A program made the translations under genes and the position numbers. A stretch of 64,000 bases of DNA from positions 64,001-128,000 of the forward strand of contig CAZJVE010000002.1 of assembly GCA_964549685.1 (NCBI GenBank). Direction: 5' to 3'. This document shows positions 20,434 through 43,706 of the stretch, piece after piece. Every line of letters starts with the position of its first letter. Positions within the stretch are counted from its first letter, which is position 1. The DNA comes from an uncultured archaeon. GTDB lineage: Archaea; Altiarchaeota; Altiarchaeia; IMC4; QMZM01. The notes beneath the pieces were generated by a model. The model worked only from the letters and a program-made list of their open reading frames with translations. It was not told the DNA's origin and did no database searches.

Positions 20434-23400
20434 CTATGTGCAAAGAGGGATATCTGCTGTATCCATCCCCATATACGGTGAGAAGCACGTATCCGAGTCA
20501 TAGTCGTCTATGCAGCCATCCTGATTCAGGTCATGGCTTGAAGTATAACCTGGATCGCCCGCGCATAAGTCCAGGCTTATTTGCATCGACAAATAATCAG
20601 CATAATCAACCTCTGCATCGCCGTTTAGGTCTGGACACAGCACGCATCCCGTAGCAATGCTCGTAGTTGTTAGGGTGGTGCTTGTCGTAGTGCTCGAAGC
20701 CCCGCTACTCCACGCGTTTATCAGGTCTATTACATCCGCCAGATTCGCCTGGTCATTGGACCAGAGAGTTATCAGGTCTATCACTTCTGAGAGACTCACG
20801 TCACCACAGGGTGCGCTGTCGCCAACCAGAGTGCAGTCCCCCGATATTGTTGTGCTGGTGCTTGTCGTAGTTGTGGTTGTAGCGCCCTCCTCGGCACATT
20901 CTATCTTGGATACATTGACCCCCCACACCGTGATGGAGCCGTCCGAGTCAAAGACGAACTTCATGTCGTCCGTTTCATAGTACTCGGTCCAGTTGTAGTC
21001 CCCCCCGCTCCAGGTGCCGTCTATCGTATCCAGGCTGGAGCCCTCGCCCGTTTTTATGTAGAGGTAGTCGTACCCCGACTCCGTAATCGCCTTCATATAT
21101 GCCCTCATTGACGAGCCGGAGCTGCATTGATATTCATAGGAGGCGCAGTCCAGGTAATTCGAATACGGGTGCGGCGTTTCGAATGCTATGCTATGCTGCC
21201 CCAGGCCAAAGGAGCCGCCCGAATCCATGCTGCAGCCCGATGCGATGGTGGACGTGGTCAAGACCGTCGTCGTGCTCGTTGATGTGGATGTTGTCGATGT
21301 GGTTGTTGTGCCATTTATTGATGTCGATGTTGAGCTCGTGGAGGTGCTGCTTGTTGATGTGCTGCTGCTAGTGGATGTAGACGTCGTGGTAGTCCCGGTA
21401 ACCGTAACCGCGGCATTGCTACTCCTTACTGTCTGAAGTTGCGGGTTTCCGCTGTTGTAGGTCCTTATATCTACGGTGTCAAGCGTTATGTTGCTGACTC
21501 CTGCACCTATCGCCTCGAATTTCGCGGACGCTATGCCGGTCCCGGAAGAAGATATGCCGTCCGTCGACCTGACTCTCAGGTACTGCACCGTCCCCTGGGT
21601 ATTGTTTATGGTCGGTCCGACATCGGTATATGCGGTTGAGCTATCCGCAGTCAGGAAATCCCCTATCGTTAGCGAGGTGGCGTTCAGGACGTCCGGGTCA
21701 AAGCCGAGATGAATCTCCACGCTGTATGCATCTGAAAGCTGGCTGCTGTTAATCTCGACGGAGAAGGTGTCTCCAGCCACGGCGGCTACGCTCGAGGGGT
21801 CGATGCTCACGTCCAGCAGGATTGTGCTTGTGGTGCTCGTCGACGAGGTGCTGGTCGTGGTCGTCTGGTTTGTTATGCTTGTGGTGGTCGACATTGACGT
21901 GCTGGTAGAGGTCGTAGTGCTCGTGGACGTGGTAACAACGCTGCAGTCATACGTGCATCCGGCCGTCCCGCTGTCGCTCCAGGTGCTCGGGTTGTCGCAC
22001 GTATTCTCGTCCCCTGAATTCCCCGATGTGGTGCCTGAAAACTTGAAGTCTGACTCCGTATTACCGCAGATTCGGTTCGAATCCACGTCATTGAACATCG
22101 AATCATGGAAGCGGATTCCGTTCGTGTTGTTGGATATGGTGTTGTTGGCGATTGTGTTACTGGAGGAGCTGCTGAAAGAGATTCCCTTGTCGAAGTCCGT
22201 GATGATGCAGTTCCTTATCTTGTTGCTGGCCCTGAGGTGCATGTAGATTCCGGTGCCGGAGGTGTCCCCGTCCCCGTCAATTTTGTAGTTCTGGCAGTCG
22301 AAGATTATGCCGCTCTCGCCGAACGTAATGCAACTGCCGTCCTGGTCGGTTATGTCCGCGCCGAGGTTCACGGTCGAATAGGTGCCGTCCAGCTTCGTGG
22401 TGCAGTCCGCACAGGAGGTGCAGGTATTCCCTGTCGATACGGTCGTTGTCGTTGAGGTCAAGCTCGTGCTTGTAGATGTTGACGTGCTCGTCGATGTACT
22501 GGTCGAGGTGGATGTCGACGTCGTGCTACTACTACTGGTCGTCGTAGTGCCAGACGTAACGACGCTGAATGCAAGGTCGTCATCATCTCCGTAGGTTCCG
22601 GTATAGCAGCTGCTTCCGCCACCCCACTTCCAGCCGATTATCGCCCTCACGTATTGGGTGCTACTGGCGTCATCCACGGTAAAGCTCGTGGAGTAAGTTC
22701 CTGTGGTTCCGGGGTAATCGCACTGGGAGTCTATAAGGAGCACTCTCCAGCCAGTGCCGTTATAATACCATATCTCTACTCTGTCATTGGAATCATAGCA
22801 CTCCACCAGGACCTCCACGTTAACGGTGTCCCCCGCATTCACTCCGCAGGAGGAGCCCACGTTCGTAAGGGTAATCCCCTCTATGTCGTCCTCGCCGTTG
22901 CAGCTCGCCGCCCCGGCGCAGGAATCCGCCAGGATATTGTCGGTGCAGCCGTTGCTCCCAAGGCACGCGCTCCCGCACTGGCACTGCGTAACTACGGTTG
23001 AGGTCGTGCTTGTAGAGCTAGTAGTTGATGTTGTCGTGCTGGTAGAAGACGTGCTGCTGGACGTTGTCTGGGTTATCGTGCTAGTGGTGCTGGTCGAACT
23101 CGTGCTAGTGGTGCTGTAGCAGTTAATCGTCTCGACATCGATGCCCCAGTCTGTTTGAGAACCGTCGGATGTGAACCTGAACTGGATGCTCCTCGTGTTG
23201 GGGTGCTCCCTCCATACGTAGCCCTGTGAATCCCCGCACCAGTACGTGCTTGTGCCGGTGTCGGCGTTTATTATGTAGAACTTGTCATAATTGCACGTGG
23301 AATGGTACTCAATATCGTGCTTTACATAGACCTTTCCGTAGTAGCTGGATGGGCAGGTATAGGTGTTCGAAGAGCAATCCATGTTGTTGGGATAAGTGTG

Positions 23401-25749
23401 CGGGGTCTGGAAATCGATTGTATTGTCCCCGGCGCTCAGGCTTGCTGATGCAGAGGAGGTACACGACAGGATAGAGGTCGTGGTCGAGGTTGTCGTGGAT
23501 GTGGTGGTTGTACTTGAGGTAGAGCTTGAGGAGGGGCAGTCCGCCTCGCAGTTGCCCGTGGTCTCGGCATTTGTAGCAGAGGAATCGCAGGTGCCGTCGC
23601 CGCAGTATTTCAGCTCATAGGTGAAGTCGAACAGCTCACCGCCGCCGTCTTCATATACATGGGCCGCAATGCTTATATCGCAGCCGGAAGAGCAGTACTC
23701 TTTACTGGTTATGTCGTTCCATGCATCGCTGTCCGCGCTGCCCGTGCACGTGGTGGCACAGCCCCCCACGTAATTCGTTCCGCTGCAGTTCCCGCCTTCG
23801 TAGAGATCCGGGCTGGAGGATTCGTCGTTGTTGGAATCAATCCAGAGCTTATAGCCGTCGTCGGATGCGACCCTGTAGCTCAGATTGGCCAACCGCCCCG
23901 GGACATTAATGGTCTTCCTGTAGAATTTATCGCAGTGGTCGCAGTTCTCGTCCCACTCGTCTTTCAGGTCCACGTCGCTCCAGCAGGAGTCGTCATAGTT
24001 GAGCTCGTACCAGTAGTCATAGCCGCCGTCCCTCATGACCTCGTTATCGGAATACTCGTCGCACTGGTCGTTGTCCGCGTCGTATCTCACCGCCTTCCAG
24101 CCGCACCTCGGGTCTGTGGGATTCGTCAAGCACCAGGACTTCGAGTTCGTGACGGTGCCTACGCACTCCCCGTTGCAGCTAGCCCACCTCGTGGAATCGT
24201 TAACCGCGCAGTCGCTTCCGTCTATGGTGCCATCATCATCACAGTCGGAATCCTCGGGGCACGGGTCGTTCATGTTGGAGAGGCCGTCGCTGTCCAGGTC
24301 CGTGGAGTACGAGGTGTCGGTGTTTATCATCTCGTGGTTAGAGGCGACGGCATAGTACTCAAAGCCGTTCTCCAGTGTGTAGGGGTAGGGGACCCCCACC
24401 CTGAGCCAGTATATTCCGTTCTCGCTGACCTGGTAATGGACGTGCTCCACGTTGTTCTTGGTGCTTCTCGAGGAGCTTATGAGGTTGTAATCGCCGTCGT
24501 AGAGGTAAAGATTAAAGTTGGTCAGGGATGCCGGGGTTCCTTTATAGCTCGAGACGTTGCGCCTCCAGACAAGCGTTGCCGTGATATTGGCGGGGGCGTC
24601 AGTCACGTAGACCTTATGGTACCTGTCGGTTGTGTCAGAGGCCAGTCTGGCATGCAGCTTGTAGCCTGACGGCTCCGTTGTCGCCCTGCTACTGTAGGTT
24701 GCGAGCGCCTCCACCGCGTCCACGAGCCCCGCCCCCTGCCACTGGTCCAGGGGGTCGGTGGTTGTATGCGACCAGCCACTCAGCTTCGTTGCAGAGTTCA
24801 TGATTGCGGCCTTCATAAGGACCGGGTCGTTCGTCTGGCTATTCGTCTCAGCCCAGCTGAAGAGAAGCGCTGCCACGCCCGAGACGTGGGGGGTGGCCTG
24901 GCTGGTGCCTGTCCTGGGCGCGATGCTGTCTTCGGTTTCCCAGTCATTGTTGGACGACCATATCTCCTTCCCCGGCGCCACAACATCGACCGTCGTTCTG
25001 CCGTCGTCCGTCTTGCCGTGGCCGCTCTCGTTGTCCGGAGAACAGCTATCAGCATCACTACAACTTAGCACTGAGCCCACGGTAATGGCGTTGTAGTTGT
25101 CCCCCGGCGCCTCGATGTGCGAGTCCGGATTGTGCGTCTGGTCCCAGTTGCCTGCAGCGGTGACGAAGATGGTATCTCTCCCATACGATATATAGTCCAC
25201 GAGTTGCGTCAGGTTAGAGCTGCCTGTCGTGCTCAGTTCGTCATAGTAGCGGCCCTGGCTCAGGCTGATTATCTCTGCGCTATTCGGGTAGTCTATGGCC
25301 CAGTTAATCCCGGCATAGAGGTAATCCCAGAGCCCAAATGCGGTTGAGGCCTGGACGTCTATTATCCCGGCGTAGGGTGCCACTCCCTTGTAGCTGCTGT
25401 CCTGGCTGACGATAATCCCTGCGACGTGGGTCCCGTGCCCCTCAATGTCCCCCTCGTGCCCGTCGGGGTCCGTGTTATTGTAGAAACTCCCCCAGTTGAG
25501 GACGGCGTTGATGTCGGGGTGGCTCCTGTCAATTCCTGTGTCGACGACCGCCACCGTGGTAACTAGTCCTCCGGACGTATTATCCTGGATTTCATCTGCT
25601 CTGATTAGGGATACTGACTCAATCAGACTTGTCTTGATTCCGCCTTCATCAGACACGTCGCCGGCATCTTCAACACCGACAACACCGCAGCTAAGAACCA
25701 ATATACTGACTGCAAGAATGAATAAAACACCCTGTTTCATTTTATTCAA
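20434..25749 (-). CDS. Giant secreted S8 subtilase with Ca-binding repeats, PA14-like, CUB-like x2, beta-helix, cohesin-like and two dockerin-like modules
   Basis: Triad VAVVDTG / GHGTHVAG / GTSQATPHV; ASDDGYKLWID; TPHxYxNxxDC twice; cohesin-like VSIDPSS...LGFDPDVL; terminal PDLNGDAEVDYAD...DLNQDGCIDDYD. Confidence 0.88.
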   Translation of the reverse strand: MNKMKQGVLFILAVSILVLSCGVVGVEDAGDVSDEGGIKTSLIESVSLIRADEIQDNTSGGLVTTVAVVDTGIDRSHPDINAVLNWGSFYNNTDPDGHEGDIEGHGTHVAGIIVSQDSSYKGVAPYAGIIDVQASTAFGLWDYLYAGINWAIDYPNSAEIISLSQGRYYDELSTTGSSNLTQLVDYISYGRDTIFVTAAGNWDQTHNPDSHIEAPGDNYNAITVGSVLSCSDADSCSPDNESGHGKTDDGRTTVDVVAPGKEIWSSNNDWETEDSIAPRTGTSQATPHVSGVAALLFSWAETNSQTNDPVLMKAAIMNSATKLSGWSHTTTDPLDQWQGAGLVDAVEALATYSSRATTEPSGYKLHARLASDTTDRYHKVYVTDAPANITATLVWRRNVSSYKGTPASLTNFNLYLYDGDYNLISSSRSTKNNVEHVHYQVSENGIYWLRVGVPYPYTLENGFEYYAVASNHEMINTDTSYSTDLDSDGLSNMNDPCPEDSDCDDDGTIDGSDCAVNDSTRWASCNGECVGTVTNSKSWCLTNPTDPRCGWKAVRYDADNDQCDEYSDNEVMRDGGYDYWYELNYDDSCWSDVDLKDEWDENCDHCDKFYRKTINVPGRLANLSYRVASDDGYKLWIDSNNDESSSPDLYEGGNCSGTNYVGGCATTCTGSADSDAWNDITSKEYCSSGCDISIAAHVYEDGGGELFDFTYELKYCGDGTCDSSATNAETTGNCEADCPSSSSTSSTTTTSTTTSTTTSILSCTSSASASLSAGDNTIDFQTPHTYPNNMDCSSNTYTCPSSYYGKVYVKHDIEYHSTCNYDKFYIINADTGTSTYWCGDSQGYVWREHPNTRSIQFRFTSDGSQTDWGIDVETINCYSTTSTSSTSTTSTITQTTSSSTSSTSTTTSTTSSTSTTSTVVTQCQCGSACLGSNGCTDNILADSCAGAASCNGEDDIEGITLTNVGSSCGVNAGDTVNVEVLVECYDSNDRVEIWYYNGTGWRVLLIDSQCDYPGTTGTYSTSFTVDDASSTQYVRAIIGWKWGGGSSCYTGTYGDDDDLAFSVVTSGTTTTSSSSTTSTSTSTSTSTSTSTSTSTSLTSTTTTVSTGNTCTSCADCTTKLDGTYSTVNLGADITDQDGSCITFGESGIIFDCQNYKIDGDGDTSGTGIYMHLRASNKIRNCIITDFDKGISFSSSSSNTIANNTISNNTNGIRFHDSMFNDVDSNRICGNTESDFKFSGTTSGNSGDENTCDNPSTWSDSGTAGCTYDCSVVTTSTSTTTSTSTSMSTTTSITNQTTTTSTSSTSTTSTILLDVSIDPSSVAAVAGDTFSVEINSSQLSDAYSVEIHLGFDPDVLNATSLTIGDFLTADSSTAYTDVGPTINNTQGTVQYLRVRSTDGISSSGTGIASAKFEAIGAGVSNITLDTVDIRTYNSGNPQLQTVRSSNAAVTVTGTTTTSTSTSSSTSTSSTSTSSTSTSINGTTTTSTTSTSTSTTTVLTTSTIASGCSMDSGGSFGLGQHSIAFETPHPYSNYLDCASYEYQCSSGSSMRAYMKAITESGYDYLYIKTGEGSSLDTIDGTWSGGDYNWTEYYETDDMKFVFDSDGSITVWGVNVSKIECAEEGATTTTTTSTSTTISGDCTLVGDSAPCGDVSLSEVIDLITLWSNDQANLADVIDLINAWSSGASSTTTSTTLTTTSIATGCVLCPDLNGDAEVDYADYLSMQISLDLCAGDPGYTSSHDLNQDGCIDDYDSDTCFSPYMGMDTADIPLCT

Positions 25750-25796
25750 TTAAGGATTGGTTCCAGCACTATAAATCCTTATTGATTCGCTGCTGT

Positions 25797-28700
25797 CTAG
25801 CCCGAGGACCAGGCACTTATCAGGTCTATCACGTCCGCAAGGCTTGCGCCGTCCGCTGCCCACAGGCTTATCAGGTCGATTACTTCTGCCAGACCCACTT
25901 CGCCGCAGGGCGGGTCGTCTCCTACTAGGTCACAGCCCCCGGATATTGTGGTGCTGGTCGATGTCGTGCTTGTCGTCGTTCCTGCTATTGTCGTAGAGGT
26001 ACTCGTGCTGGTTGATGTCGTAGTAGTCGCGCTGCACGCATAGGTGCATCCGGTCGTCCCGTCGTCGCTCCAGTCTCCCGGAATATCGCATGTGTTCTCA
26101 TCGCCTGAGTTCCCTGAGTTGCTGCCCGAGAACGAGAAATCAGCCTCGGTGTTGGAACAGACGGTGTTGGAATTCACCGTGTTGTACATGGCGCTCGAGA
26201 AACGGATTCCCTCAACGTTATTTGATACGGTATTGTTAACAAGGGTGCTGAAAGACGTGGAGCTGAGCAATATCCCCTTGTCAAACCCGGTAATGACGCA
26301 GTTTCTTATGGTACTGTCCGATTTCAAATGCAAATAGATTCCCGTTCCATAATCGTCTCCGTCCCCGTCGATTGTATGGCCCTGGCAGTCGAACTCTATA
26401 TTGCCGTCGCTGAATGTGATGCAGTTCCCGTCCTTGTTCGATATGCTCGCAGTCAGCTGAACCGTGGAGTAGGTCCCGTCCAGCTTCGCGTTGCAGCCGG
26501 AGCATGAGCTGCAAGTATTCCCTGCTGACAATGTGGTGGTGGTCGATGTCGACGTAGTCGAGGTGGTCAATGTGCTGCTGGTTGACGTCGTTGTGCTGGT
26601 TGTTGTTGCGCCGGCGCAGGTATAGCTGCATCCCGTAACTCCTGTGTCGTTCCATCCAGCTACCGTGTCGCAGCTATTCTCGTCGCCGGAATTATCCGTG
26701 CCGTTGGCGAAGTAAAAATCCTCCTGCGTGTTGGAGCAGAAGCGGTTCGAACTTATGGTGTTGTTATCGGAGTTATAGATGCGGATTCCGTTTATGCCAT
26801 TGGACTGTGCGGTGTTTGCCGTAATTGTATTATTGTCGGCTGATGTCCCAACGAACATTCCCTGCCAGGTGTTCGAGTTCATGGTGTTGTTGGTTATCGT
26901 GTTGTAGCTGCCGCCGACATAAATCCCCCGGTATGTGTTGGAGTTTGCGGTGTTGTTGGCGATGGTATGGTAGTCGGACAGGAGAGACAGGTATATTCCG
27001 CCGTCGTTGTTTGATGCGTTGTTGTCCGTAATCGTGGCGCCGTCTGAATAGTATACATAAATCCCATTCCCGCTGTTTGAGGTTAGGGTGTTGTTCAAAA
27101 TGGTGTTGTTGTTCGAGCCATAGAGGTAGATGCCGTCTGAGAAACCAGTAATTATGCAGTTCCTCACGGTGTTGTTGTCTTTATAGAGCATGAATATTCC
27201 GTCATTTATGCCCGAACTGTCAATTGTATAGCCCTGGCAGTCGAACTCGACGTTGTCGGAATTGAAGGTGATGCATCTGCTGGGGTAATCTGTTATGTTC
27301 GTGGTCAGCTTAACCACAGTGTAGTTCCCGTCGAGCTTGTTGCTGCAATCCTCGCATGAGCTACAGGTCGTTTCCAACTGCCATGCGCTTGAGTTCAACG
27401 GATAATAATCTGCAGTATTATTCACTCCGTCCCCATCACAATCAGTGCAGTAGGTCAGGTCATAGTCCAGCATCGGCTTGTTGCTGGCGAGAGCATAGTA
27501 TTCGAAGCCGTTCTCCAAGGCACCGCCATAGACATCGACGTTGAGCCAGTATATCCCGTTCTCAGTGGCCTCATAGTAAACGTGCTCCACATTGTCCTTG
27601 TTGCTCGCGGACCAGTTGAGCATCTCGTTCATGTCTCCGTCATAAAGATAGAGGTCGAAGTCCGTCAAATCTGCAGGAGTAAGATTGTAGTTGGTAACAT
27701 TCCTCCTCCAGACAATGGTTGCCGTGATGTTCGTCGGGGCATCGTCCACATAGACTCGGGTATACCTGTCCGAGGCATTGTAGACAAGCCTTGAGTGCAG
27801 CAGGTAGCCCGTGGGGTCTGTCGACGGCCTGCTTATATAAGTCCTGTATGCATCAACGGCATTCAGAAGCCCGGCCCCCTGCGTCCTGTCCAGGGGCTCA
27901 AGGTGTGTATGGCTCCATCCCGACAGCTTCGTCGCAGAGTTCATGATTGCGGCCTTCATAAGGACCGGGTCATTCGTTTTCGAATTCAAATCTCCCCAGT
28001 GGAAGAGCATTGCAGCAACCCCCGACACATGGGGCGTTGCCTGGCTCGTTCCGCTCTTCGTGGTATAATCGTCTATCTCCTCAGGCCAATCGCTCCAGTT
28101 ATAGTTGCAGGACCATATGTCGTCCCCGGGCGCCAGGACGTCTATCTTCGTCCTGCCGTCATCCGTTACATTCCTTCCGCTGTCACTGTCCAGGGCCAGG
28201 CCCTTTGTCACCGAACCCACCGTGATTCCGTTATAGTTGTCCCCCGGAGCCTCGATGTGCGAATCTGGATTGTTCGTCGAGTCCCTGTTGCCTGCGCAGA
28301 CTATGAACGGAGTATTCCTCTGATATGCGATGTAATCCACGAATTTTGTAAGCTCAAAATTGCCTGTCGTGCTGACCTCGACATAGGACCGTGCCTGGCT
28401 CATGCTTATTATGTTCGCGCCGTTGTCTATGGCCCAGTTCACTCCCGCATAGAGGTATTTCACTGCGTCATCCAGCTCCGTTATCGAGGCCTTCACGTTT
28501 ATTATGTCTGCATTCGGAGCCACCCCTGGGTAAAGGTCGTCCTGGCTCGCGATAATGCACGCGACATGCGTTCCGTGTCCCTGAATATCCTCGGTGCTCC
28601 CGTCGGGGTCCGCATCGGTATAGAAGTTCCCTCCATTAACAAGATTATTATCGATAGCGGGGTGCGTGCTGTTGACTCCCGTATCTACGACAGCGACCGT

Positions 28701-28886
28701 AGCCAGAGAAGCCCCCGATACGTTGCTCGTAATCTCATCGGCCCTGATAAGCCCCACGGAATTATCCAGGGCGGTCTTGATTCCTCCCCTGGACGCATCG
28801 TTGGAGTTCTCGGCACTGAAAGCACCGTAGCTCAGGACTATCAAACAAACCAGAACAAATAAGTTCCTGTTTTTCATCTTAATCAA
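25797..28886 (-). CDS. Secreted S8 subtilase paralog with two beta-helix modules and a dockerin-like tail
   Basis: VAVVDTG / GHGTHVAC / GTSQATPHV; catalytic domain closely similar to 20434..25749; ends GDDPPCGEVGLAEVIDLISLW...LADVIDLISAW. Confidence 0.88.
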   Translation of the reverse strand: MIKMKNRNLFVLVCLIVLSYGAFSAENSNDASRGGIKTALDNSVGLIRADEITSNVSGASLATVAVVDTGVNSTHPAIDNNLVNGGNFYTDADPDGSTEDIQGHGTHVACIIASQDDLYPGVAPNADIINVKASITELDDAVKYLYAGVNWAIDNGANIISMSQARSYVEVSTTGNFELTKFVDYIAYQRNTPFIVCAGNRDSTNNPDSHIEAPGDNYNGITVGSVTKGLALDSDSGRNVTDDGRTKIDVLAPGDDIWSCNYNWSDWPEEIDDYTTKSGTSQATPHVSGVAAMLFHWGDLNSKTNDPVLMKAAIMNSATKLSGWSHTHLEPLDRTQGAGLLNAVDAYRTYISRPSTDPTGYLLHSRLVYNASDRYTRVYVDDAPTNITATIVWRRNVTNYNLTPADLTDFDLYLYDGDMNEMLNWSASNKDNVEHVYYEATENGIYWLNVDVYGGALENGFEYYALASNKPMLDYDLTYCTDCDGDGVNNTADYYPLNSSAWQLETTCSSCEDCSNKLDGNYTVVKLTTNITDYPSRCITFNSDNVEFDCQGYTIDSSGINDGIFMLYKDNNTVRNCIITGFSDGIYLYGSNNNTILNNTLTSNSGNGIYVYYSDGATITDNNASNNDGGIYLSLLSDYHTIANNTANSNTYRGIYVGGSYNTITNNTMNSNTWQGMFVGTSADNNTITANTAQSNGINGIRIYNSDNNTISSNRFCSNTQEDFYFANGTDNSGDENSCDTVAGWNDTGVTGCSYTCAGATTTSTTTSTSSTLTTSTTSTSTTTTLSAGNTCSSCSGCNAKLDGTYSTVQLTASISNKDGNCITFSDGNIEFDCQGHTIDGDGDDYGTGIYLHLKSDSTIRNCVITGFDKGILLSSTSFSTLVNNTVSNNVEGIRFSSAMYNTVNSNTVCSNTEADFSFSGSNSGNSGDENTCDIPGDWSDDGTTGCTYACSATTTTSTSTSTSTTIAGTTTSTTSTSTTISGGCDLVGDDPPCGEVGLAEVIDLISLWAADGASLADVIDLISAWSSG

Positions 28887-28915
28887 TTAAGAATTAATCA
28901 CGGGGCTATAAATTC

Positions 28916-31570
28916 TTATTGGTTCGCCCAGTTATCGATGGCATCGATTACGTCAGCCAATTCGGCCTCCTCGTTCTGCCAGAGGTTTATGATATCTATG
29001 ACCTCTGCCAGGCTCACCTCCCCATCGCAGTCAGAATCGCCCGTTAGACACACTATCGTCGTGCTCGTGGACGTGGTGCTGGTCGAGGTGGTCGTGGTTA
29101 GCACTGTCATGCTCAGGTCCCATTCTACTGGTATGAAGTTCTGCTTCGTTACTGTGAGGTTCATGGAGTCGTTGCCGGCGACGGTTACCTGAAGCGCCGC
29201 ATCGCCCGAGGAATTGGTGTAGGCATTGGCGTATGAGCCCGAGTTCTGCAGGCAGACCCTCGCATCCTCGACAGGGCCGGCTGAACCGTTAACGGAAACC
29301 ACTATTGAATTCTCCCCCAGATAAATCTCGCTGGGGAATTCCACGGTGAAATTCTCCGGGACCGAGGTCCATATCGGAACCTCAGGGTCTCCCAGGAGGT
29401 TGTAGTCCGCAAAGTTCTTCTTCGAGGCATCTCCGCCGCCCCATCCCTCATCCGTTGGCCACTGGTTGACGTAATACCATCTCTTCATGTCCGCCAGCGT
29501 CTTCCCCGGCTGATGGCTTCCGTTGATGAACTGCTCGAAGAACCTGTAAACCAGCTCCTGGTTGAAGCCGTCGCCAAGGACCCATCCCTGCGTGTAGTAG
29601 CTGGTCCTTGTGGCCCCCACATAGCCGATGGCCCAGTTCTTCAGCACCTCGTTGCCGAGAGAGCCTGTCTGGTCGAATGCCCCGGTTAAACAGGAATCTG
29701 CATAGACAAGCGGCAGCATCCCGCCGTTTGCAGGGTCCGTCCCGGTATCTACAAAGGCGTCGCATGTCTGGCACGGTACCGACACGGTATATAGCCCGTG
29801 GCCTGACCAGGTTACAAGGGAATTCCCATAGCCTGCATAGGTCTCAAAATTGGAATATGTGAGTGCAGCATCCCTGTCGTACGTGCTGGAATGATACAGT
29901 CTGTAATTCGAGAAATTCCCCGGTTCCAGTAAATCAGCCCTGACCAGCTCCATCAGATAGGCATCGTCAGTGGTGTCGTCGGATACCCCTCCCGCAAGAA
30001 CCGCCCTCGAGAACCACTCGCTGCTGTTCGTGGGCGGTGATTTCTCATAGCTGATTATGGCACTGACAAGGCTCTCAATCTCCGTTGCTGTTGATACCGG
30101 CAGCCTCCCGACGTAGACGTCGGGAATCCAGTCCGTTACCTCGTCCCCGACCCCGGTGTGTTCATTCTCTCCATAGTTGGAGTCCCAGTCGCTATTCCAG
30201 TCCCCGCCAAGGCAGCTATAGTAGTAGTCGGTCGGCACACTATCCTCGTCGCCTTCATACCAGTCCCTGCTCACTCTCAACGAGGGGACCTGGCTGTCCG
30301 AGCCTGCAAGAAGAACCCATTCCGCCCCCTCGCTGTATCTGTCGATGATGAAATCCCTAATCATCTTCTGCGGTGGATTCTCATGGGAATTCAAATCCAT
30401 TGCACTGAAGCCGGAAACGGTCCAGTTGGTGGTTGAATTCCCCTCCGCCAGGAAGAGAACTTCCTGGTCCGTAACTACAGAAACATTGTCCAGCCACCAG
30501 CCGCCGAAGCTGACGTAGGTGTCGGTAACATAGTAGAACCTAAGGTAGATTTCCTCCCCGGCGTAGCTGTCCATGTTTATAGTATCCTGCACCCAGGAGC
30601 TGTTCCCGGTATAGGCATAGGCGCCCTCCGTCCCTACATAGGCCTCCGGCTCCCGGTAGTCGGTCATCTGCCCGCCCTGCAGTTGGGTCCAGTTTTCTCC
30701 ATTGCTTGAGACCTCGATGTAGCCAAAGTCCCAGCCCTTCTCGACCTTGAATTTTGTCATGAGCGTCAGCTTCGCAGTGGTTGCATTGCTCAGGTTCAGT
30801 GTTCTCTGCATATAGTTGCTCTGGTCGTTGCCTGTCCCAGAATGGAAAACATAGTTCTCGGTTCCGTTGTAGCTCTGATAAATCCACTGCACGGTATATA
30901 TCTCTGCTGGAACGCCCTTCTTCGTCTTCCATTCCTTCAATGGCTCCAGGGAAGAGTTCAAAGAGGAGTCGGTTATTATCAGATACTTCGTTGCGTTGGA
31001 GACAGTAAGTGTGCCCACCTTTCTCTTCTTCGGGAGTTCGTATTCAAGGCGTAGCGAGACCCTCCTATGGAAGAGCAGGCTGCCACCACTATATTGCAGC
31101 GGGAAGATTGAGACCGATACCAGCTTGTGGTCCTTAAAACCATCGATAATCCAGAAGGAATAGACGTCTTCTGGGAACAGAAGGGACTGACCACCTGCCG
31201 TTTTAAGCGCCGGGGGATTCCCCCCTGTAGTCATGATTACGGGCTGCTTCGACAGGACAAGGCCATCGACCTCGCCGAGGGATTCCGTTTCTGTGTCCTC
31301 CAGAATTACCTGAATATTCATAGCATCCCGGGGAATTTCCACGAACTCTCTCTTCATGGGTAGCCTTGGTTCATTGGGAATGGCTGTAAAATCAAGGCCC
31401 GGAATCTCATACTGGATTCCCTCATCGCTCTGGAATGCCGTCGGCTCCTGGAACTCAAAATCCAGATGCGTGCTCTCGGCCGAGACCGAGGCCGAAAGAA
31501 GGAAAAGCAACAGCAGCGCTCCAAACCTGTTCGACATAATCTCTATTTGCCTGCCAATATTTAAATACAC
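28916..31570 (-). CDS. Secreted C25 (gingipain-like) cysteine protease with propeptide, an inserted beta-sandwich domain and a dockerin-like tail
   Basis: YLIIT...WKTKKG, WVLLAG, PTDYYY, VYVGRLP, catalytic WSGHG and ADSCLTG, YNLLGDP. True start is probably a downstream Met (MSNRFG). Confidence 0.87.
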   Translation of the reverse strand: MYLNIGRQIEIMSNRFGALLLLFLLSASVSAESTHLDFEFQEPTAFQSDEGIQYEIPGLDFTAIPNEPRLPMKREFVEIPRDAMNIQVILEDTETESLGEVDGLVLSKQPVIMTTGGNPPALKTAGGQSLLFPEDVYSFWIIDGFKDHKLVSVSIFPLQYSGGSLLFHRRVSLRLEYELPKKRKVGTLTVSNATKYLIITDSSLNSSLEPLKEWKTKKGVPAEIYTVQWIYQSYNGTENYVFHSGTGNDQSNYMQRTLNLSNATTAKLTLMTKFKVEKGWDFGYIEVSSNGENWTQLQGGQMTDYREPEAYVGTEGAYAYTGNSSWVQDTINMDSYAGEEIYLRFYYVTDTYVSFGGWWLDNVSVVTDQEVLFLAEGNSTTNWTVSGFSAMDLNSHENPPQKMIRDFIIDRYSEGAEWVLLAGSDSQVPSLRVSRDWYEGDEDSVPTDYYYSCLGGDWNSDWDSNYGENEHTGVGDEVTDWIPDVYVGRLPVSTATEIESLVSAIISYEKSPPTNSSEWFSRAVLAGGVSDDTTDDAYLMELVRADLLEPGNFSNYRLYHSSTYDRDAALTYSNFETYAGYGNSLVTWSGHGLYTVSVPCQTCDAFVDTGTDPANGGMLPLVYADSCLTGAFDQTGSLGNEVLKNWAIGYVGATRTSYYTQGWVLGDGFNQELVYRFFEQFINGSHQPGKTLADMKRWYYVNQWPTDEGWGGGDASKKNFADYNLLGDPEVPIWTSVPENFTVEFPSEIYLGENSIVVSVNGSAGPVEDARVCLQNSGSYANAYTNSSGDAALQVTVAGNDSMNLTVTKQNFIPVEWDLSMTVLTTTTSTSTTSTSTTIVCLTGDSDCDGEVSLAEVIDIINLWQNEEAELADVIDAIDNWANQ

Positions 31571-31603
31571 AGAACTATCTTTTAATATAGCAAGATGCCT
31601 GCA

Positions 31604-31756: not shown

Positions 31757-31757
31757 T

Positions 31758-34115: not shown

Positions 34116-34153
34116 ACCGTTAGTTATAAGTCACTCAAGATTAATTATTTAAC

Positions 34154-35704: not shown

Positions 35705-35755
35705 GGGAGATACACAACAGCACAAGTGGCTAGGTTCGTTCTCTCTATCTTATTA

Positions 35756-36970: not shown

Positions 36971-37036
36971 CTCATTAATCTATAGCCCCCCATACCTTTT
37001 ATCCTGTGTAGATTAATCATTACGTAGAGAGATGAG

Positions 37037-37513
37037 ATGAAAAAGAAACCAAAGGTATGGGCTAAGAAGATAAGATGGAATGGTATCGCAGTGAGTAAGA
37101 AAAGATTGGAGACAAAGGATAAACTCTTATTCTTCCTTCCCCTCTTGTTTGTGCTCATAATTCTCATAATCTGCACCATATTTCTGATTACGAGGGCTTT
37201 TTGGTGGGGGGTGATGATAGGCCTTATTATTGCTCTCATGTCCTTCACTTTCATAACTATCATAAAGCTACATTCTTATCGGCCCCCAAAAGGTTACGAC
37301 TACTACGTTTTATATGATTCCGAAGACACCTTAGACCATGAATTGGGGCATATAATCGGGGAGCATTGTGATAAATTAACCAACCTTCCCTCCCTGATTG
37401 ACAGACTTATCTATGAATTGTCAGATGACCCGTGGATCACGAAATTGCTAAAGAGACCGAGATGGAAGAGGAGGGCCGATAGGTCGCAGTTTGAAATCAC
37501 TTATGCTGATTAA
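37037..37513 (+). CDS. Hypothetical 2-TM protein with an HExxH motif
   Basis: Two TM segments followed by DTLDHELGHIIGEH. Confidence 0.5.
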   Translation: MKKKPKVWAKKIRWNGIAVSKKRLETKDKLLFFLPLLFVLIILIICTIFLITRAFWWGVMIGLIIALMSFTFITIIKLHSYRPPKGYDYYVLYDSEDTLDHELGHIIGEHCDKLTNLPSLIDRLIYELSDDPWITKLLKRPRWKRRADRSQFEITYAD

Positions 37514-37520
37514 TAACTTG

Positions 37521-38393: not shown

Positions 38394-38473
38394 TGAATTA
38401 ATACATGAGTTTGCAGGGTAAAAAATCATGCTGCAGGATTAGTTTTTAATCTGCTCTCCAATAGATTTATACC

Positions 38474-38995
38474 ATGGATTTGGGAATCATCTACAGCAAC
38501 ATGGACCTCGTGATGAAGATAGTTTACAGCGTTCTGGTCCTCATAGGCGCGAAGTTTGTGATAATCCTGCTGAGGCCGACCATGAGGAAGCTTGACGGCC
38601 ATATCGGCGAGGTCGACCTCACGGAGAGCACGCACAAGCTGATAGAGAACGTAATCCACTACGGCATATATATGGCTGCGGTGGTCGTAATCCTCTACAT
38701 CTTCGGGCTTAAGGACGCCTTCTATGGGGTTCTTACCGGTGGAGCAGTATTCGGCTTCGCCATCGGCTACGCCGCCCAGGATATCGTCTCCAACATGCTC
38801 TCAGGGGTTATGATAGCCGTCGACAAGCCATTCAAGATAGGGGACAGGATAATGGCTGCCGGCATAACCGGAGTTGTGAAAGACATAACCCTCAGAACGA
38901 CCGAGATGAAGACCGATGACGGCGTTAAGGTCGTGGTCCCGAACTCTAACCTGCTAAAGAGTCCCATACACAACTACGGCAGGAAGAAGAAGTAA
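38474..38995 (+). CDS. mscS: Small-conductance mechanosensitive channel, short form
   Basis: GFAIGYAAQDIVSNMLSG, PFKIGDRI, GVVKDITLRTT and VPNS. Confidence 0.88.
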   Translation: MDLGIIYSNMDLVMKIVYSVLVLIGAKFVIILLRPTMRKLDGHIGEVDLTESTHKLIENVIHYGIYMAAVVVILYIFGLKDAFYGVLTGGAVFGFAIGYAAQDIVSNMLSGVMIAVDKPFKIGDRIMAAGITGVVKDITLRTTEMKTDDGVKVVVPNSNLLKSPIHNYGRKKK

Positions 38996-38996
38996 A

Positions 38997-40433
38997 ATGC
39001 AGGACAAGATATTGGACATCTCGAGGAGGAGGGGGATAATCTATCCCTCCTTTGAAATCTACGGCGGGCTTGCGGGATTCTACGACTATGGTCCTGTCGG
39101 AAAGAGAATAAAGGAGAACGTCGAGAACCTGATAAGAGAATTCTATGTCATTGACGAGGGCTTCATGGAGGTCGAGTGCCCTACTCTCTCGCCCGAAGAG
39201 GTGTGGGTTGCCTCCGGGCACGTGGAGAACTTCGCAGACCTGATGACGGAGTGCAAGAAGTGCGGCGCACCATACAGGGCGGACCACCTCGTGGAGGCGC
39301 ACCTCAAGAAGGCAGTCGACGGCCTCGGCATCAAGGAGCTTGAGACCCTGATAGAAAAGGAGAAAATCAGCTGTCCCAAATGCAGGGGCGAGCTTGACAA
39401 AGTTTATAACTATAATCTGATGTTCCAGACCTTCGTTGGCCCTGGCAAGGAGAAGAAGACCTCCTACCTCCGGCCTGAAACCGCGCAGACCACATACCTC
39501 GCCTTCAGGCGGCTCTGGGAAATCGGCAGGAAGAAGCTCCCCCTCGGAGTGCTGCAGATTGGCCGCTCGTTCAGGAACGAGATATCGCCGAGGCAGGGCG
39601 TTATAAGGTTGCGGGAGTTCAACCAGGCGGAGATTCAGATTTTCGTGGACCCCGATGAAAAGGACACCGAGGAATTCAAAAATGTTTCTAAGATAAAGGT
39701 TAGAATTCTCGACAAGAATGATAAAGAGTCCGATATGACTCTTGGCGATGCCGTCAAGAAGAAGATAATAGAGTCAAGGCTCATTGCATATCACCTGGGC
39801 AGGGCGCTGCAGCTGTTCGAGGCCATGGGGATAGACGGCAAGAGGCTGAAGCTCAGGCAGCATAGAGATGAGGAAAGGGCATTCTATTCGACCGATACCT
39901 GGGACGTTGAGTTCCAGTCCGAGCAGTTCGGCCGGGTCGAGCTTGTTGGAATATCGGACAGGACAGACTATGATTTGAAGGCACATCAGGACCTCAGCGG
40001 CCAGAGCATGGAGGTCAATCTGGAGGGCAAAAGATTCATACCCCACGTCATTGAGATAGCATACGGGGTCGACAGGCCGGTTTACTGCGCGGTTGAGTCA
40101 TGCTATGCCGAGGATGACAGGGGCGCATACTTCAAATTCCCAAGGAGAACGGCACCCTACCAGGTGGCAGTCTTCCCTCTTGTTAACAAGGACAAAATTC
40201 CCGAGAAAGCAAGAGAAATTTTCAATTCCCTGAAAAAGGCCAGGATATTCTCTCTTTACGATAGAGGGGGAAGCATAGGCCGAAGATACGCAAGAGCGGA
40301 CGAGATAGGAATCCCTGCCTGCATAACGGTAGATTATGATACTCTGGAGGACGATACGGTGACCGTCAGGGAAAGGGATTCCAAGAAGCAGGAGAGAGTA
40401 AAGATAGAGGAACTCTCTAAGCACATTTTATGA
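38997..40433 (+). CDS. glyS: Glycine--tRNA ligase (alpha2 type)
   Basis: YDYGPVG, LRPETAQ, FRNEISPRQG..RLREF and SIGRRYARADEIG. Confidence 0.96.
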   Translation: MQDKILDISRRRGIIYPSFEIYGGLAGFYDYGPVGKRIKENVENLIREFYVIDEGFMEVECPTLSPEEVWVASGHVENFADLMTECKKCGAPYRADHLVEAHLKKAVDGLGIKELETLIEKEKISCPKCRGELDKVYNYNLMFQTFVGPGKEKKTSYLRPETAQTTYLAFRRLWEIGRKKLPLGVLQIGRSFRNEISPRQGVIRLREFNQAEIQIFVDPDEKDTEEFKNVSKIKVRILDKNDKESDMTLGDAVKKKIIESRLIAYHLGRALQLFEAMGIDGKRLKLRQHRDEERAFYSTDTWDVEFQSEQFGRVELVGISDRTDYDLKAHQDLSGQSMEVNLEGKRFIPHVIEIAYGVDRPVYCAVESCYAEDDRGAYFKFPRRTAPYQVAVFPLVNKDKIPEKAREIFNSLKKARIFSLYDRGGSIGRRYARADEIGIPACITVDYDTLEDDTVTVRERDSKKQERVKIEELSKHIL

Positions 40434-41187
40434 AGATTTCGTCGTACAGGCTTTCCTGCTCGAGCTTCACTCGCTGGTTGTTTGACAGGTACAGCAGCGA
40501 AAGGAACAGGGATATCTTTTCCTCGAGGTTGCCGGCCATCTCCGAGAAGAGGGCCACGTCCTTTGTAGACAGGATGTCCCTCACCCTCTGGTAGGTCTCC
40601 TCTATCAGCTCGGTTATGTTGGCGGTAAGCGCGATTTCGAGCTCCTTCTTCCCGTTGCCGTTTCCGTTGCCTTCCTTCTTCAGCTTCTGCTTGAGAGTCT
40701 TTTCCTCCAGGACCCCCTGGATTGCGTTAATCAGCTCGACTGCGGTTACCCTTCTTTTCACAATCCTCTTTGGCTTGACGTGTATTGGAAGGCCGTCGTC
40801 GCCCTCAATCTCCCTCTTGAGCTTGTCTCCTGCAGAGGAAAAGGCCGAGGGGTCTAATTCACCGAACAGGTCGAAGTCCCCCTCAAGGAACTCGGGCATG
40901 AACTCGTCCATGCTTATCGGAATGTTGCCGACTATGTCGGCCTTCATTCGCAGGAGAACGGCGGTGACAATGACTACGTTAGCGGGAATCGTGAAGTTCA
41001 TGTCTTTCATCTGCTCGACCTTGGAGGCGTATTCGGTAGCAAGCTCGGATATGTCGATGTCCCAGGGGTCCATCTGGCCAATCACTTCATAGAGGGTGTC
41101 CTTCCAGAACGAGCTTTCCATCATTCCGTGCGGGAATGATGTTTTGTGAATCTCCTGATTTGCGATATTGGCGTCGGTCGCGACCAT
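40417..41187 (-). CDS. scpA: Segregation/condensation protein A (kleisin)
   Basis: MDPWDIDI, LLRMKA, RRVTAVEL and FLSLLYL...LEQESLYDEI. Confidence 0.88.
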   Translation of the reverse strand: MVATDANIANQEIHKTSFPHGMMESSFWKDTLYEVIGQMDPWDIDISELATEYASKVEQMKDMNFTIPANVVIVTAVLLRMKADIVGNIPISMDEFMPEFLEGDFDLFGELDPSAFSSAGDKLKREIEGDDGLPIHVKPKRIVKRRVTAVELINAIQGVLEEKTLKQKLKKEGNGNGNGKKELEIALTANITELIEETYQRVRDILSTKDVALFSEMAGNLEEKISLFLSLLYLSNNQRVKLEQESLYDEIFIKCA

Positions 41188-41229
41188 TTTGGTGGTATTA
41201 GTGATAAGGTCGATTCGGGTTTAAATACA

Positions 41230-41382
41230 TTACGGTTTTTCCTCGCTCAGGATAGCGATTACGTTCCTGCCCAGCCACTTCAGCGGGACGGTTATGTGTG
41301 CCCCGGTGCCGAACTCCTTGGCCTTCTTCTTGCGCACGTCGCTGATTCCTATGTCCACCCGGACGATATCACCCTTTCTCAT
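41230..41382 (-). CDS. DUF2080-family small protein (transposon-associated, AbrB-like)
   Basis: Missed by the ORF track. MRKGDIVRVDIGISDVRKKKAKEFGTGAHITVPLKWLGRNVIAILSEEKP has the FGxGAHIxVPxxWxG motif. Confidence 0.8.
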   Translation of the reverse strand: MRKGDIVRVDIGISDVRKKKAKEFGTGAHITVPLKWLGRNVIAILSEEKP

Positions 41383-41495
41383 TATATATATTTATATATA
41401 TCTAAGTATAAAAAGGTTTTGGTTTTTGCGGATTTGTACAAGAAGTGAATCCGAAAGGGATTAATACCTATGAGGCAAATACTTTAATGCTTAAA

Positions 41496-43706
41496 ATGAA
41501 GTACGGGCTCTTGATACTGCTGGTGGTGTTATCACAGGTTGCGGTGGTAGACTCGAATGTTATAATCAATGAAGTGATGTACAATCCGAACCAGTGCACC
41601 GACTCGTATTGTGAATGGATTGAGCTGTATAATCCCACCGCATCAGCCGTGGATGTGAGTGGATGGGGCCTGTCGGATGATACTGCGACTGACACATTAG
41701 AGGGAACCAACACAGTTATTCCCGCCTATGGGTATGCAATAATAACGGATAAAACGACCTACGTCTACAGCTACTTTAACGTTAATGCATCGGCTATCAG
41801 ACTCACCGTTGATGACGAGAGCATCGGCAACGGACTTGGTAACAGTGGCGAGAGCATAGGGATATCGTCAGGCAACTACTCCGATTCAATGACATATTAC
41901 GGTAATGAACTGGCAGGATATTCAACCGAAAAAATAGGGTCCAGCTGGACGGAGAGCGTCGCACTGGGCGGAACTCCAGGTTCGGCCAATGGGGCCGCAG
42001 CGACAACCACCTCCACGACAACAACCACAACGACATCGTCCACGACAACAACCAGCGTCCCAATCGCAGCCGTAATAATCAACGAAATAATGTATGACCC
42101 AAACCAGTGCAGCGATACATACTGTGAGTGGATAGAGCTCTACAACCCCACAGGCTCGTCGGTTAATATTTCCAACTGGACTATCTCAGATGACAGTGCA
42201 ACCGATACCCTGATGGGGACCACCATGGTCATCCCGGCCTATGGTTATGCCATAATCACGGACGTCACCAACAATGTCTACAGCAGCTTCAACGTTAGTG
42301 CATCCGCTATCCGGCTTACGGTGGATGATGAGAGCATCGGCAACGGATTAGGTAACACAATCGGAGAAACCATAACTCTGTCCTATAGTACGTATTCTGA
42401 CTCGGTAAGTTATTCCATAGGGGGTACACCGGGATATTCTGTCGAGAAAACAGGCTCTGGCTGGGCTCAGAGTGCCGTAGATGGCGGCACGCCGGGCAGC
42501 GCAAACAGCGGAACGACTACGACGACCACTACCACAACAACGACCGCTGCAAGCACGTCTACGACAACAGCCCCTGCTACGACGTCCACTACAACAAGCA
42601 CGTCTACGACGGTGACTGGTACGACCACCACGAGCACATCCACGACCGTAACCAGTACGACATCTACCACGAGCACGTCTACGACTGTGACTAGCACGAC
42701 ATCCACTACGAGCACATCCACGACAGTGACTGGTACAACAACCACGTCCACTACAAGCACGTCCACGACAGTAACTGGCACAACAACCACGTCCACTACG
42801 ACCACCACAACGACCAGCACGACCACAACGATATCCGGAGAGCTGGAGGTAACATCGGCACAGGCCTCCCTGGGCGAAACGGTTACAGTCGATATAAGGG
42901 TTAACAGCGCCCCCAATGAAGTTAGTGCATTTGGATTCGACTTAACATATGATGGAGACGTCCTCCTGTATCAGGCTTATTGGAACGGGAGCATTATCGA
43001 GGGCTATGATTACCTTGGCGTGAATGACATCTCACTAGATACGGTCAGGGTCGGCGCATTTACGACCCAGAACGCAATACAGGCCGGAGAATCCGGAAGC
43101 ATTTTGGAAGTGGACTTCACAGTCGTAGGCTGCTATAATATCTCACTTGGGCTGACAAACCTTGTGGATGATGTTTCCTCCTGGGAAGTAAGCAATGGGA
43201 CCTTTACCTGTACGGGGGCCGCTACAACGACTACCTCCACCACCACAACATCCTCAACAACCACGACACTGGATGGCGTGGTTGAATACATAGATATAGG
43301 GGACTCTGAATTCTTCCCCAATCCCATGCCCATAGTGTTGGGAAGGTATGTAAGATGGATCAACTTTGATGCAATCCCGCACCAGGTAATGATGGATTCG
43401 GGTCAGGGCATAGACTATACGAGTGCGGTATTATCCCAGTATCAGGAATCAACAGTCCTGCTGATAAATGATACAGGCACCTACACCTATCACTGTCACC
43501 TGCATCCTGAAATGACCGGCACAATCGAAGTCAACGCTGAAACCACGACCACCCTTGGAGAATGTCTTACCGGAGACCTCGACTGCGATGGAACAGTGGG
43601 TTTGGACGAGGTAGTGGACGTGATTACCCTTTGGACGGAGGGCCAGGCCCTTCTCAGCGAGGTAGTAGAGGCCATAACCAACTGGGAGGCGCAGGCGGGG
43701 GGCTAG
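41496..43706 (+). CDS. Secreted protein: two lamin-tail domains, Thr linker, cohesin-like domain, cupredoxin-like domain and dockerin-like tail
   Basis: VIINE[VI]MYxP...EWIELYN...GTPGSAN twice; LGETVTVDIRV...FGFDLTYD; PHQV...YTYHCHLHPEMTGTI type-1 Cu ligands; ends CLTGDLDCDGTVGLDEVVDVITLW...AITNW. Start chosen at MKYGLL; 41487 and 41445 are alternatives. Confidence 0.85.
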   Translation: MKYGLLILLVVLSQVAVVDSNVIINEVMYNPNQCTDSYCEWIELYNPTASAVDVSGWGLSDDTATDTLEGTNTVIPAYGYAIITDKTTYVYSYFNVNASAIRLTVDDESIGNGLGNSGESIGISSGNYSDSMTYYGNELAGYSTEKIGSSWTESVALGGTPGSANGAAATTTSTTTTTTTSSTTTTSVPIAAVIINEIMYDPNQCSDTYCEWIELYNPTGSSVNISNWTISDDSATDTLMGTTMVIPAYGYAIITDVTNNVYSSFNVSASAIRLTVDDESIGNGLGNTIGETITLSYSTYSDSVSYSIGGTPGYSVEKTGSGWAQSAVDGGTPGSANSGTTTTTTTTTTTAASTSTTTAPATTSTTTSTSTTVTGTTTTSTSTTVTSTTSTTSTSTTVTSTTSTTSTSTTVTGTTTTSTTSTSTTVTGTTTTSTTTTTTTSTTTTISGELEVTSAQASLGETVTVDIRVNSAPNEVSAFGFDLTYDGDVLLYQAYWNGSIIEGYDYLGVNDISLDTVRVGAFTTQNAIQAGESGSILEVDFTVVGCYNISLGLTNLVDDVSSWEVSNGTFTCTGAATTTTSTTTTSSTTTTLDGVVEYIDIGDSEFFPNPMPIVLGRYVRWINFDAIPHQVMMDSGQGIDYTSAVLSQYQESTVLLINDTGTYTYHCHLHPEMTGTIEVNAETTTTLGECLTGDLDCDGTVGLDEVVDVITLWTEGQALLSEVVEAITNWEAQAGG
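42510..42832 (+). repeat. Coding Thr/Ser tandem repeat (TTSTSTTVT[G/S]T)n
   Basis: Repeated agcacgtctacgac / agcacatccacgac units. Confidence 0.8.

Follow-up and report, generated by a model that had tools for sequence, protein, structure and literature searches.

The window analysed here, a 64,000-nucleotide stretch of contig CAZJVE010000002.1 (positions 64,001 to 128,000), comes from an uncultured archaeon of the Altiarchaeota whose genome assembly spans 1.17 Mb in 27 contigs and is 85% complete. It encodes two secreted proteins, a giant S8 subtilase and a protein with lamin-tail domains, that each carry a cohesin and, on the same chain, a compact module of ~45 residues (here called the tail) that is best read as a derivative of the dockerin. 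The two proteins and their modules are located as follows (HMM, hidden Markov model).

20434..25749, minus strand: giant secreted S8 subtilase, 1771 amino acids (Peptidase_S8, E 8.2e-44, residues 64-323)
21394..21825, minus strand: cohesin of the subtilase, residues 1309-1452 (above the PF00963 cut-off)
20704..20841, minus strand: compact tail of the subtilase, residues 1637-1682, putatively Cys-clamped type (tail HMM, 83.8 bits)
20497..20631, minus strand: canonical-type two-loop dockerin at the extreme C-terminus of the subtilase (PF00404, 21.6 bits, E 2.5e-4)
41445..43706, plus strand: secreted lamin-tail protein, 753 amino acids (LTD, E 2.3e-24 in two stretches; Copper-bind, E 3.3e-5)
42819..43217, plus strand: cohesin of the lamin-tail protein, residues 459-591 (above the PF00963 cut-off)
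43290-43535, plus strand: cupredoxin domain inside the lamin-tail protein, residues 616-697 (Copper-bind, E 3.3e-5)
43557..43691, plus strand: compact tail of the lamin-tail protein, residues 705-749 (tail HMM, 70.9 bits)

The subtilase, which has an N-terminal hydrophobic segment, is ordered as signal peptide, Peptidase_S8, Cys-rich and CUB-like region, beta-helix, cohesin, CUB-like region, tail and canonical-type dockerin, with Thr/Ser-rich linkers joining the modules. The beta-helix is a NosD/Beta_helix match; a CUB-like piece was matched as well, and residues 1500-1630 gave a CUB-type match below the cut-off of that family. No Pfam family was found at E ≤ 0.01 in residues 480-740, 770-880 or 920-1068, and a Cys-rich region and a second CUB-like repeat were called by eye within these unmatched stretches (residues ~480-1070). 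The tail is internal, with 89 residues downstream of it, and the protein ends in a separate two-loop dockerin-type module, a point that an earlier note on this DNA did not contain. Measured against the Pfam gathering score for PF00404 (Dockerin_1, 22.9 bits), this terminal module falls just short, with 21.6 bits for the isolated segment and 21.0 bits in a six-frame scan over all contigs of the source genome, where it is the only PF00404 match; it has two D-x-N-x-D-G/A loops, which can be aligned to canonical dockerins from the phylum.

The lamin-tail protein consists of two lamin-tail domains, the cohesin, the cupredoxin and the tail, which lies 4 residues from the C-terminus and whose first loop shows the complete EF-hand-type calcium-binding pattern (D-x-D-x-D-G ... 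E). A database copy of this protein (P0005) has 739 amino acids and is 100% identical; its start would correspond to window position 41487. The cupredoxin between cohesin and tail has a Cys...His...Met ligand-like motif near the end of the domain, and a copper protein would be an unusual part of a surface adaptor.

Both window modules are true cohesins. Scanned alone, the subtilase segment (21394-21825, minus strand) matched PF00963 with 29.7 bits (E 8.6e-7, profile positions 6-138 of 139, the match proper covering window positions 21403-21795) and the lamin-tail segment (42831-43217, plus strand) with 44.6 bits (E 2.2e-11, profile positions 2-101 of 139), both above the gathering score of 24.1 bits. 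Pfam scans of the whole proteins detected neither of them; only the isolated segments match. The earlier note had called cohesin-like modules in both proteins from sequence and suggested this very scan; its coordinates are accurate to within ~10-20 bases, and the peptide strings it quoted occur in both translations. A six-frame PF00963 scan over all contigs found exactly three cohesins in the genome, all above the cut-off (29.0 bits for the subtilase and 38.1 bits for the lamin-tail protein), the third being the end of a 3384-residue adhesin, L010, on a different contig, and an iterated HMM of our own recovered the same three. When the PDB was searched with a profile of these cohesins, solved cohesins came out on top (1g1k at E 7.4e-5, then 2vn5 and 4uyp).

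For structure comparison we used the paralogue L010, whose cohesin is 43% identical to that of the subtilase, in place of the window cohesins. An AlphaFold2 model of its cohesin plus tail had a mean predicted local distance difference test score (pLDDT) of 89.7 and was all-beta over residues 1-137, and in a Foldseek search every listed match was a cohesin (6kge_A at E 1.1e-10; target-normalised template-modelling score ≤ 0.78), with the non-cellulosomal cohesin 2xdh of Archaeoglobus fulgidus at rank 3 (E 1.4e-10). The cohesin of the lamin-tail protein is 64% identical to those of two database proteins (P0006 and P0007), and the source genome contains two cohesin subtypes that are mutually only ~20% identical. 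No NCBIfam model matches the cohesins, the tail or a small cohesin-tail protein. A 922-residue database protein (P0158) is scaffoldin-like, with several tandem cohesins of the lamin-tail protein's subtype and a C-terminal hydrophobic segment.

The tail is not a dockerin as Pfam defines the family. PF00404 gave no match in four tails scanned, even at E ≤ 10, and the genome-wide PF00404 scan recovered no tail. When the alignment of 21 tails was compared by hhalign with that of 19 canonical dockerins of the phylum, the two matched with 88.8% probability (E 2.5e-6) over 45 columns, pairing tail positions 8-52 with dockerin positions 2-62; the one gap, 16 columns long, corresponds to the linker between the repeats together with the beginning of the second calcium loop. 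In a second hhalign run of our own the real pair scored 27.0 over 23 columns and 30 column shuffles scored at most 13.4, and the reversed alignment and a cohesin alignment reached probabilities of 0.36% and 0.56%. The two helices of the tail form an internal repeat (consensus type L-x-E-V-I-D-x-I-x-x-W), and the match of the second helix rests on the 45-column hhalign alignment and on this repeat. In the alignment the second calcium loop is absent from all 21 tails.

The position of the tail points the same way. It is joined directly to a cohesin, with zero linker, in L010, in its orthologues from the two remaining genomes of the genus and in the database protein P0077, which has 195 residues and consists of signal peptide, cohesin and tail only. 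Two small proteins of a sister-genus genome (G025) have a canonical two-loop dockerin right after the cohesin, exactly where the tail stands in these proteins, and in an alignment of the two-domain units the tail corresponds to the G025-type dockerin minus 16 residues. The L010 orthologues of the two other genus genomes are 64-72% identical to L010 over cohesin plus tail, but their tails are of another subtype, one whose calcium loop is intact.

Structure prediction adds a third line of evidence. The tail of the lamin-tail protein was modelled by AlphaFold2 from 34 sequences as an ordered loop with two helices (pLDDT 89.6). VIA-align, run exhaustively over 48,161 PDB representatives, placed dockerins at all of ranks 1-5 (2ozn_B and 6kg9 at Z 4.3, then 2vn5_B, 2y3n_D and 2ccl_B, down to Z 3.5, with 44-47 residues aligned). 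Among the top 50 matches evaluated, 11 were dockerins (Z 4.3-2.9; 4fl4_A was judged by its 68-residue length), including the group-4 dockerin 8ajy_D at rank 16 (Z 3.3). This ranking of model matches supports a dockerin kinship of the tail without being decisive.

Several observations weigh against that kinship. The match in our own hhalign run covers 23 columns only, leaving the first loop-helix as its firm part; the VIA-align Z scores are all below 5, a range in which perhaps only a common arrangement is shared; Foldseek found nothing significant in the PDB for the tail model, the best matches being cobalamin-binding helical hairpins at E 2.2; and the tail has no Pfam or NCBIfam match. Searching PDB sequences with the tail profile gave weak hits to an EF-hand calcium-binding protein (E 0.009) and to a dockerin of Ruminococcus flavefaciens (E 0.016), so that sequence alone does not separate a dockerin from a generic EF-hand. 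Taking the profile comparison, the position after the cohesin and the structural ranking together, derivation from a dockerin is the best reading of the tail: the first loop-helix and the final helix seem to have been retained, and the linker and the second calcium loop lost. As such it would be a previously undescribed, compact form, restricted to one lineage as far as our searches reach.

The tails differ in their remaining loop. The full calcium-binding pattern, D-x-[DN]-x-D-G...E, is present in 7 of the 21, and in the other 14 calcium-ligand positions 3 and 5 are taken by Pro and Cys. Among 160 classifiable tails (the source genome plus the best 150 representatives of the wider family, a sample biased to the Cys type, as was the query profile), Cys occupies loop position 5 in 147. 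A second Cys stands exactly five residues before the loop in 146 of these 147 and in 1 of the 10 tails without the loop Cys. The covariation of the two residues is near-perfect, and because they covary it suggests a disulfide clamp that replaces calcium.

Tails are numerous in the source genome. An HMM built from ten regular-expression matches and then run against the open frames of the genome found 21 of them at E <1e-9, with no further score better than E 0.9; with one copy in a gene broken by an assembly gap, there are at least 22 tail genes in 1.17 Mb, and a tail fragment at one contig end completes a copy that is truncated at the start of another contig. The tail lies 0-4 residues from the C-terminus in 18 of the 21 carriers and is internal in 3, and Thr/Ser-rich linkers stand upstream of it. 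It is acidic and amphipathic and lacks a hydrophobic anchor; 19 of the 21 carriers have an N-terminal hydrophobic, signal-like segment, and none has a further membrane-like segment. One carrier has a weak second tail by the tail HMM. The peptidases among the carriers are three of family S8 and one of C25, to which a protein with a weak CHAT match may be added. Beta-helix proteins of the NosD type also bear tails, as do a lectin protein of LamG type, propellers of the PQQ and FG-GAP types and the giant adhesin; Pfam scans of the carriers revealed no glycoside hydrolases. The adhesin gene (L010; source genome G000, contig C3:86172-96326, minus strand) is cut by the contig end and encodes at least 3384 residues, with 23 CarboxypepD_reg stretches, PKD, LTD and further domains before the terminal cohesin and the tail fused directly to it. 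Six carriers lie within the window; those beside the two cohesin proteins are listed here.

25797..28886, minus strand: second S8 subtilase, 1029 amino acids, two beta-helix regions, without cohesin; C-terminal, putatively Cys-clamped tail at 25803-25940
28916..31570, minus strand: C25 (gingipain-family) peptidase, 884 amino acids, MAM-like domain, without cohesin; C-terminal calcium-type tail at 28922-29056
6037..8553, plus strand: beta-helix (NosD-like) secreted protein, 838 amino acids; C-terminal calcium-type tail at 8404-8541
16083..16769, minus strand: small secreted protein, 228 amino acids, no Pfam family; C-terminal calcium-type tail at 16092-16229

Three neighbours are of note. SecD/SecF-type export membrane proteins are encoded at window positions 16834-19511 (plus strand), directly upstream of the secreted-protease island. 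A serpin of 549 residues (55442-57091, minus strand; Pfam Serpin, E 2.5e-127, residues 180-548) with an N-terminal extension of ~180 residues lies 24 kb from the S8/C25 peptidase island and may inhibit those peptidases. An 841-residue VWA-domain protein (48078-50603, plus strand; VWA, E 1.9e-19) is probably a surface protein and has no tail.

Outside the source genome, the tail profile, searched against 1.84 billion cluster representatives, gave 659 matches at E ≤ 1e-3 and 298 at E ≤ 1e-10. Position and copy number were counted in the best 150, of which 149 were re-found with the tail HMM: the tail lies at most 12 residues from the C-terminus in 137 of the 149, and 9 of them have two or three tails in tandem. 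Database proteins P0009-P0015 and P0020 have two or three tandem C-terminal tails, and P0020 mixes two tail subtypes, recalling double dockerins. Named relatives come from records labelled Candidatus Altiarchaeota, Altiarchaeales or Altiarchaeia, and those of the two cohesin proteins from records labelled Candidatus Altiarchaeota, in agreement with the origin that the earlier note had assumed. A locus search with a subset of six tails returned five loci, four of them in records labelled Altiarchaeota; the fifth, in a bacterial record, was a weak 21-residue match that we take as chance. Across 61 species genomes of the phylum, tails occur in 10, all of one family and distributed over four genera, with 6-26 matches each. 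In the literature searched, no paper names both a word beginning "Altiarchae" and cohesin; Altiarchaeota and dockerin occur together in two papers, and in the one listed each word occurs a single time.

That cohesin and tail share a polypeptide, as the earlier note had it, is true of the whole genome: all three cohesins are on tail-bearing proteins, one cohesin on each, and the tail HMM detects in both window proteins the dockerin-like module claimed for them, the subtilase copy being internal. Having cohesin and dockerin on one chain is common in this phylum: of 34 cohesin matches (phylum-wide Pfam scans for cohesin and canonical dockerin were thresholded at E ≤ 1e-3), 8 lie in the same open frame as a canonical dockerin and 5 in the same frame as a tail; the subtilase, which has both plugs, is entered among the latter.

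These data are consistent with a non-cellulosomal assembly system of cohesin-dockerin type in this archaeon, of which the window would hold a part; to this explanation, taken as a whole, we give an even chance. In such a system the tails would plug into cohesins as dockerins do, a disulfide between the paired Cys residues would stand in for calcium, and the three proteins with cohesin plus tail would be adaptors, each holding one tail-tagged enzyme and docked in turn to a further cohesin. Linear chains, homo- or heterotypic and joined head to tail, would form and be capped by tail-only enzymes; the canonical-type dockerin of the subtilase would provide a second link that branches the chain or ties it to a different type of cohesin; and the outcome would be proteases and binding proteins gathered into extracellular clusters. 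A protein that has a single cohesin and a single tail can give linear chains or rings, the tail-only enzymes acting as caps. The branched mesh proposed by the earlier note does not follow from this layout, since branching needs two plugs or two sockets: only the subtilase, with its tail and canonical-type dockerin, and the protein with the weak second tail qualify, and of the cohesin-bearing proteins only the subtilase could branch.

The putative binding of tail to cohesin in the source genome, judged from sequence, stands at about even odds. A complex prediction for the lamin-tail cohesin (11-row alignment) with one calcium and the tail (21 rows) scored 0.02 in both runs, the mark being 0.32, and is uninformative either way. 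Three points speak for binding. All three cohesins of the source genome fall on tail-bearing proteins, although a mere ~22 genes in 1.17 Mb encode tails, and the tail occupies the place that a canonical dockerin has in cohesin-dockerin units. The two other genomes of the genus (85-86% complete) have a cohesin-tail fusion and 6 and 17 tails, and no canonical Pfam dockerin at E ≤ 1e-3, so that the tail is the only dockerin-type module available to their cohesin.

The serious rival is that the tail has a role independent of cohesins. There would then be two systems: the cohesins would bind only canonical two-loop dockerins, the tail would dock to a different receptor, for example in the cell envelope or surface layer, and the two would share proteins merely as both are surface-assembly modules. 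We regard this as possible, if somewhat doubtful. The following observations speak for it or weigh against tail-cohesin binding. Some 22 tails face three single cohesins in the source genome, and most tails could not be engaged simultaneously; a membrane-anchored cohesin protein was not found in that genome (85% complete). Four of the 10 tail-bearing genomes (G011, G013, G020 and G024) have no Pfam cohesin at E ≤ 1e-3, among them G011, which is 97% complete and has 26 tails; our own cohesin profile detected none in these four at E ≤ 1 (best match E 0.82), and a hidden cohesin sought before the tail of giant G011 and G013 proteins was not there, other domains standing in its place. The tail family thus persists without cohesins and does not depend on them everywhere. 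In the tail-bearing genomes, all 6 canonical Pfam dockerins are on cohesin-bearing open frames. At one locus of G012, a tail-bearing genome of a sister genus (L019, contig C76:9680-13657), a 628-residue secreted protein ending in cohesin and canonical dockerin is followed by a gene for a 193-residue protein made up of a signal peptide, a cohesin, a C-terminal hydrophobic anchor and a Lys-rich end, which looks like a minimal anchoring scaffoldin; the pair looks self-sufficient, and cohesins may be served by canonical dockerins alone. The subtilase, with both a tail and a canonical-type dockerin, suggests that the two are not redundant. Finally, in another family of the phylum (f9) canonical dockerins occur in 8 of 8 genomes and a cohesin in 1 of 8, an indication that dockerin-type modules of this phylum often pair with another or no known partner; this pattern means that a missing cohesin argues against an obligatory cohesin partner and not against dockerin ancestry.

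Against two separate systems, the cohesin of the two other genus genomes would be left partnerless, the tail stands directly behind the cohesin, with no linker, just where other proteins have a canonical dockerin, and no candidate receptor was identified. A further arrangement, which is speculation, is a two-level system of the cellulosome kind in which enzyme tails serve one cohesin type and canonical dockerins the other; it fits the presence of two cohesin subtypes ~20% identical. In the few cases compared, no consistent pairing of cohesin subtype with tail subtype was seen on the same protein.

Improbable, in our judgement, is that the tail acts on its own kind, either by folding back in cis to mask its own cohesin or by forming tail-tail four-helix bundles that dimerise or cross-link the carriers. 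Its shape, a two-helix hairpin with an internal repeat, speaks for this, as do the tandem tails of 9 of the 149 representatives; two truncated dockerins of R. flavefaciens are described as packing together, though on a cohesin (PMC12270676); cohesin and tail are joined directly in the giant adhesin and P0077; and tail-tail pairing would account for tails in genomes that lack cohesins. The same zero-linker layout is, however, found with canonical dockerins, which are known to bind in trans. That the tail serves as a C-terminal signal for export or sorting, perhaps removed during secretion, and not as an assembly module is very improbable, for its terminal position (18 of 21 carriers here, 137 of 149 among the best representatives), the signal-like N-termini of 19 of 21 carriers and the preceding Thr/Ser-rich linker, all as expected of such a signal, are set against 3 internal copies of 21, the existence of tandem copies, an acidic, amphipathic and confidently folded module without hydrophobic anchor, its profile homology to dockerins, and the fact that no sorting enzyme turned up, none having been specifically sought.

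Returning to tail-cohesin assembly, one can extend it, in a form that we consider unlikely, to a dockerin lineage of the family's own, half-size and disulfide-held, that tags the bulk of the secreted proteome and draws proteases, adhesins and a copper protein into head-to-tail extracellular chains; the result would be a protein matrix built on cellulosome principles and serving not polysaccharide breakdown but possibly biofilm or cell-to-cell attachment. More generally, if the tails bind cohesins, they would constitute a compact and possibly calcium-independent archaeal cohesin-dockerin pair, adding to the orthogonal connectors for designer scaffolds, and a cellulosome-style assembly would organise proteases and adhesins on an uncultured archaeon with a small genome; there would also be a concrete hypothesis, open to experiment, for the arrangement of large secreted proteins in Altiarchaeota. 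If their partner is a different one, the tails remain a marker for the secreted surface proteome of the clade and point to another receptor.

Among known systems, the classical cellulosome is similar in that a conserved docking module, C-terminal and preceded by a Thr/Ser-rich linker, is found on many secreted enzymes, and cohesins on few proteins; the subtilase, with two types of plug beside its cohesin, resembles primary scaffoldins and recalls the type I/type II hierarchy. It differs in that here no glycoside hydrolases were seen among the carriers, no tandem cohesin arrays occur in the genome and no anchored cohesin was found in it. The archaeal non-cellulosomal systems of A. fulgidus and of anaerobic methanotrophic (ANME) archaea share with ours secreted proteins of cohesin and dockerin type that are unrelated to cellulose, and the lack of large multi-cohesin scaffoldins. 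In A. fulgidus the two modules occur together on one protein and are reported to bind each other. The difference is that the common plug here is a shortened derivative and not a Pfam dockerin, and that the cargo is mostly peptidases and beta-helix proteins. In ANME archaea, dockerin and cohesin proteins are described that include some with one dockerin and several cohesins, with archaeal binding verified in work cited there (PMC9012536).

The polymerisation idea itself is not new. The dockerin of Amy4 from Ruminococcus bromii, a secreted enzyme with cohesin and dockerin on one chain, is described as binding the cohesin of its own protein; its authors propose multimers and cite further cases, and peptidases of the R. 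bromii amylosome also bear dockerins (PMC4611034). With this precedent, and with 8 of the 34 cohesin matches of the phylum in one open frame with a canonical dockerin, the earlier note overstated its case in calling the layout "unlike" that of cellulosomes. The R. bromii system, as described, is bacterial, uses canonical dockerins and separate anchoring scaffoldins (Sca2) and has been established by binding experiments, whereas the archaeal one is predicted from sequence.

In the tail itself we see a likeness, by description, to the group-2 truncated dockerins of R. flavefaciens, which have ~45 aligned residues, a single calcium loop and a helix-loop-helix shape and are reported to be functional, two copies binding per cohesin and one being attached to a cohesin-like module (PMC12270676). 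According to the same account, group-2 dockerins have one canonical helix and an extra helix of group-4 type, whereas the tail apparently keeps both contact helices, and most tails here have the covarying Cys pair in place of calcium ligands. The closest functional parallels to the window proteins are the archaeal non-cellulosomal systems and the R. bromii amylosome, and the closest structural parallel to the tail is the group-2 dockerin of R. flavefaciens.

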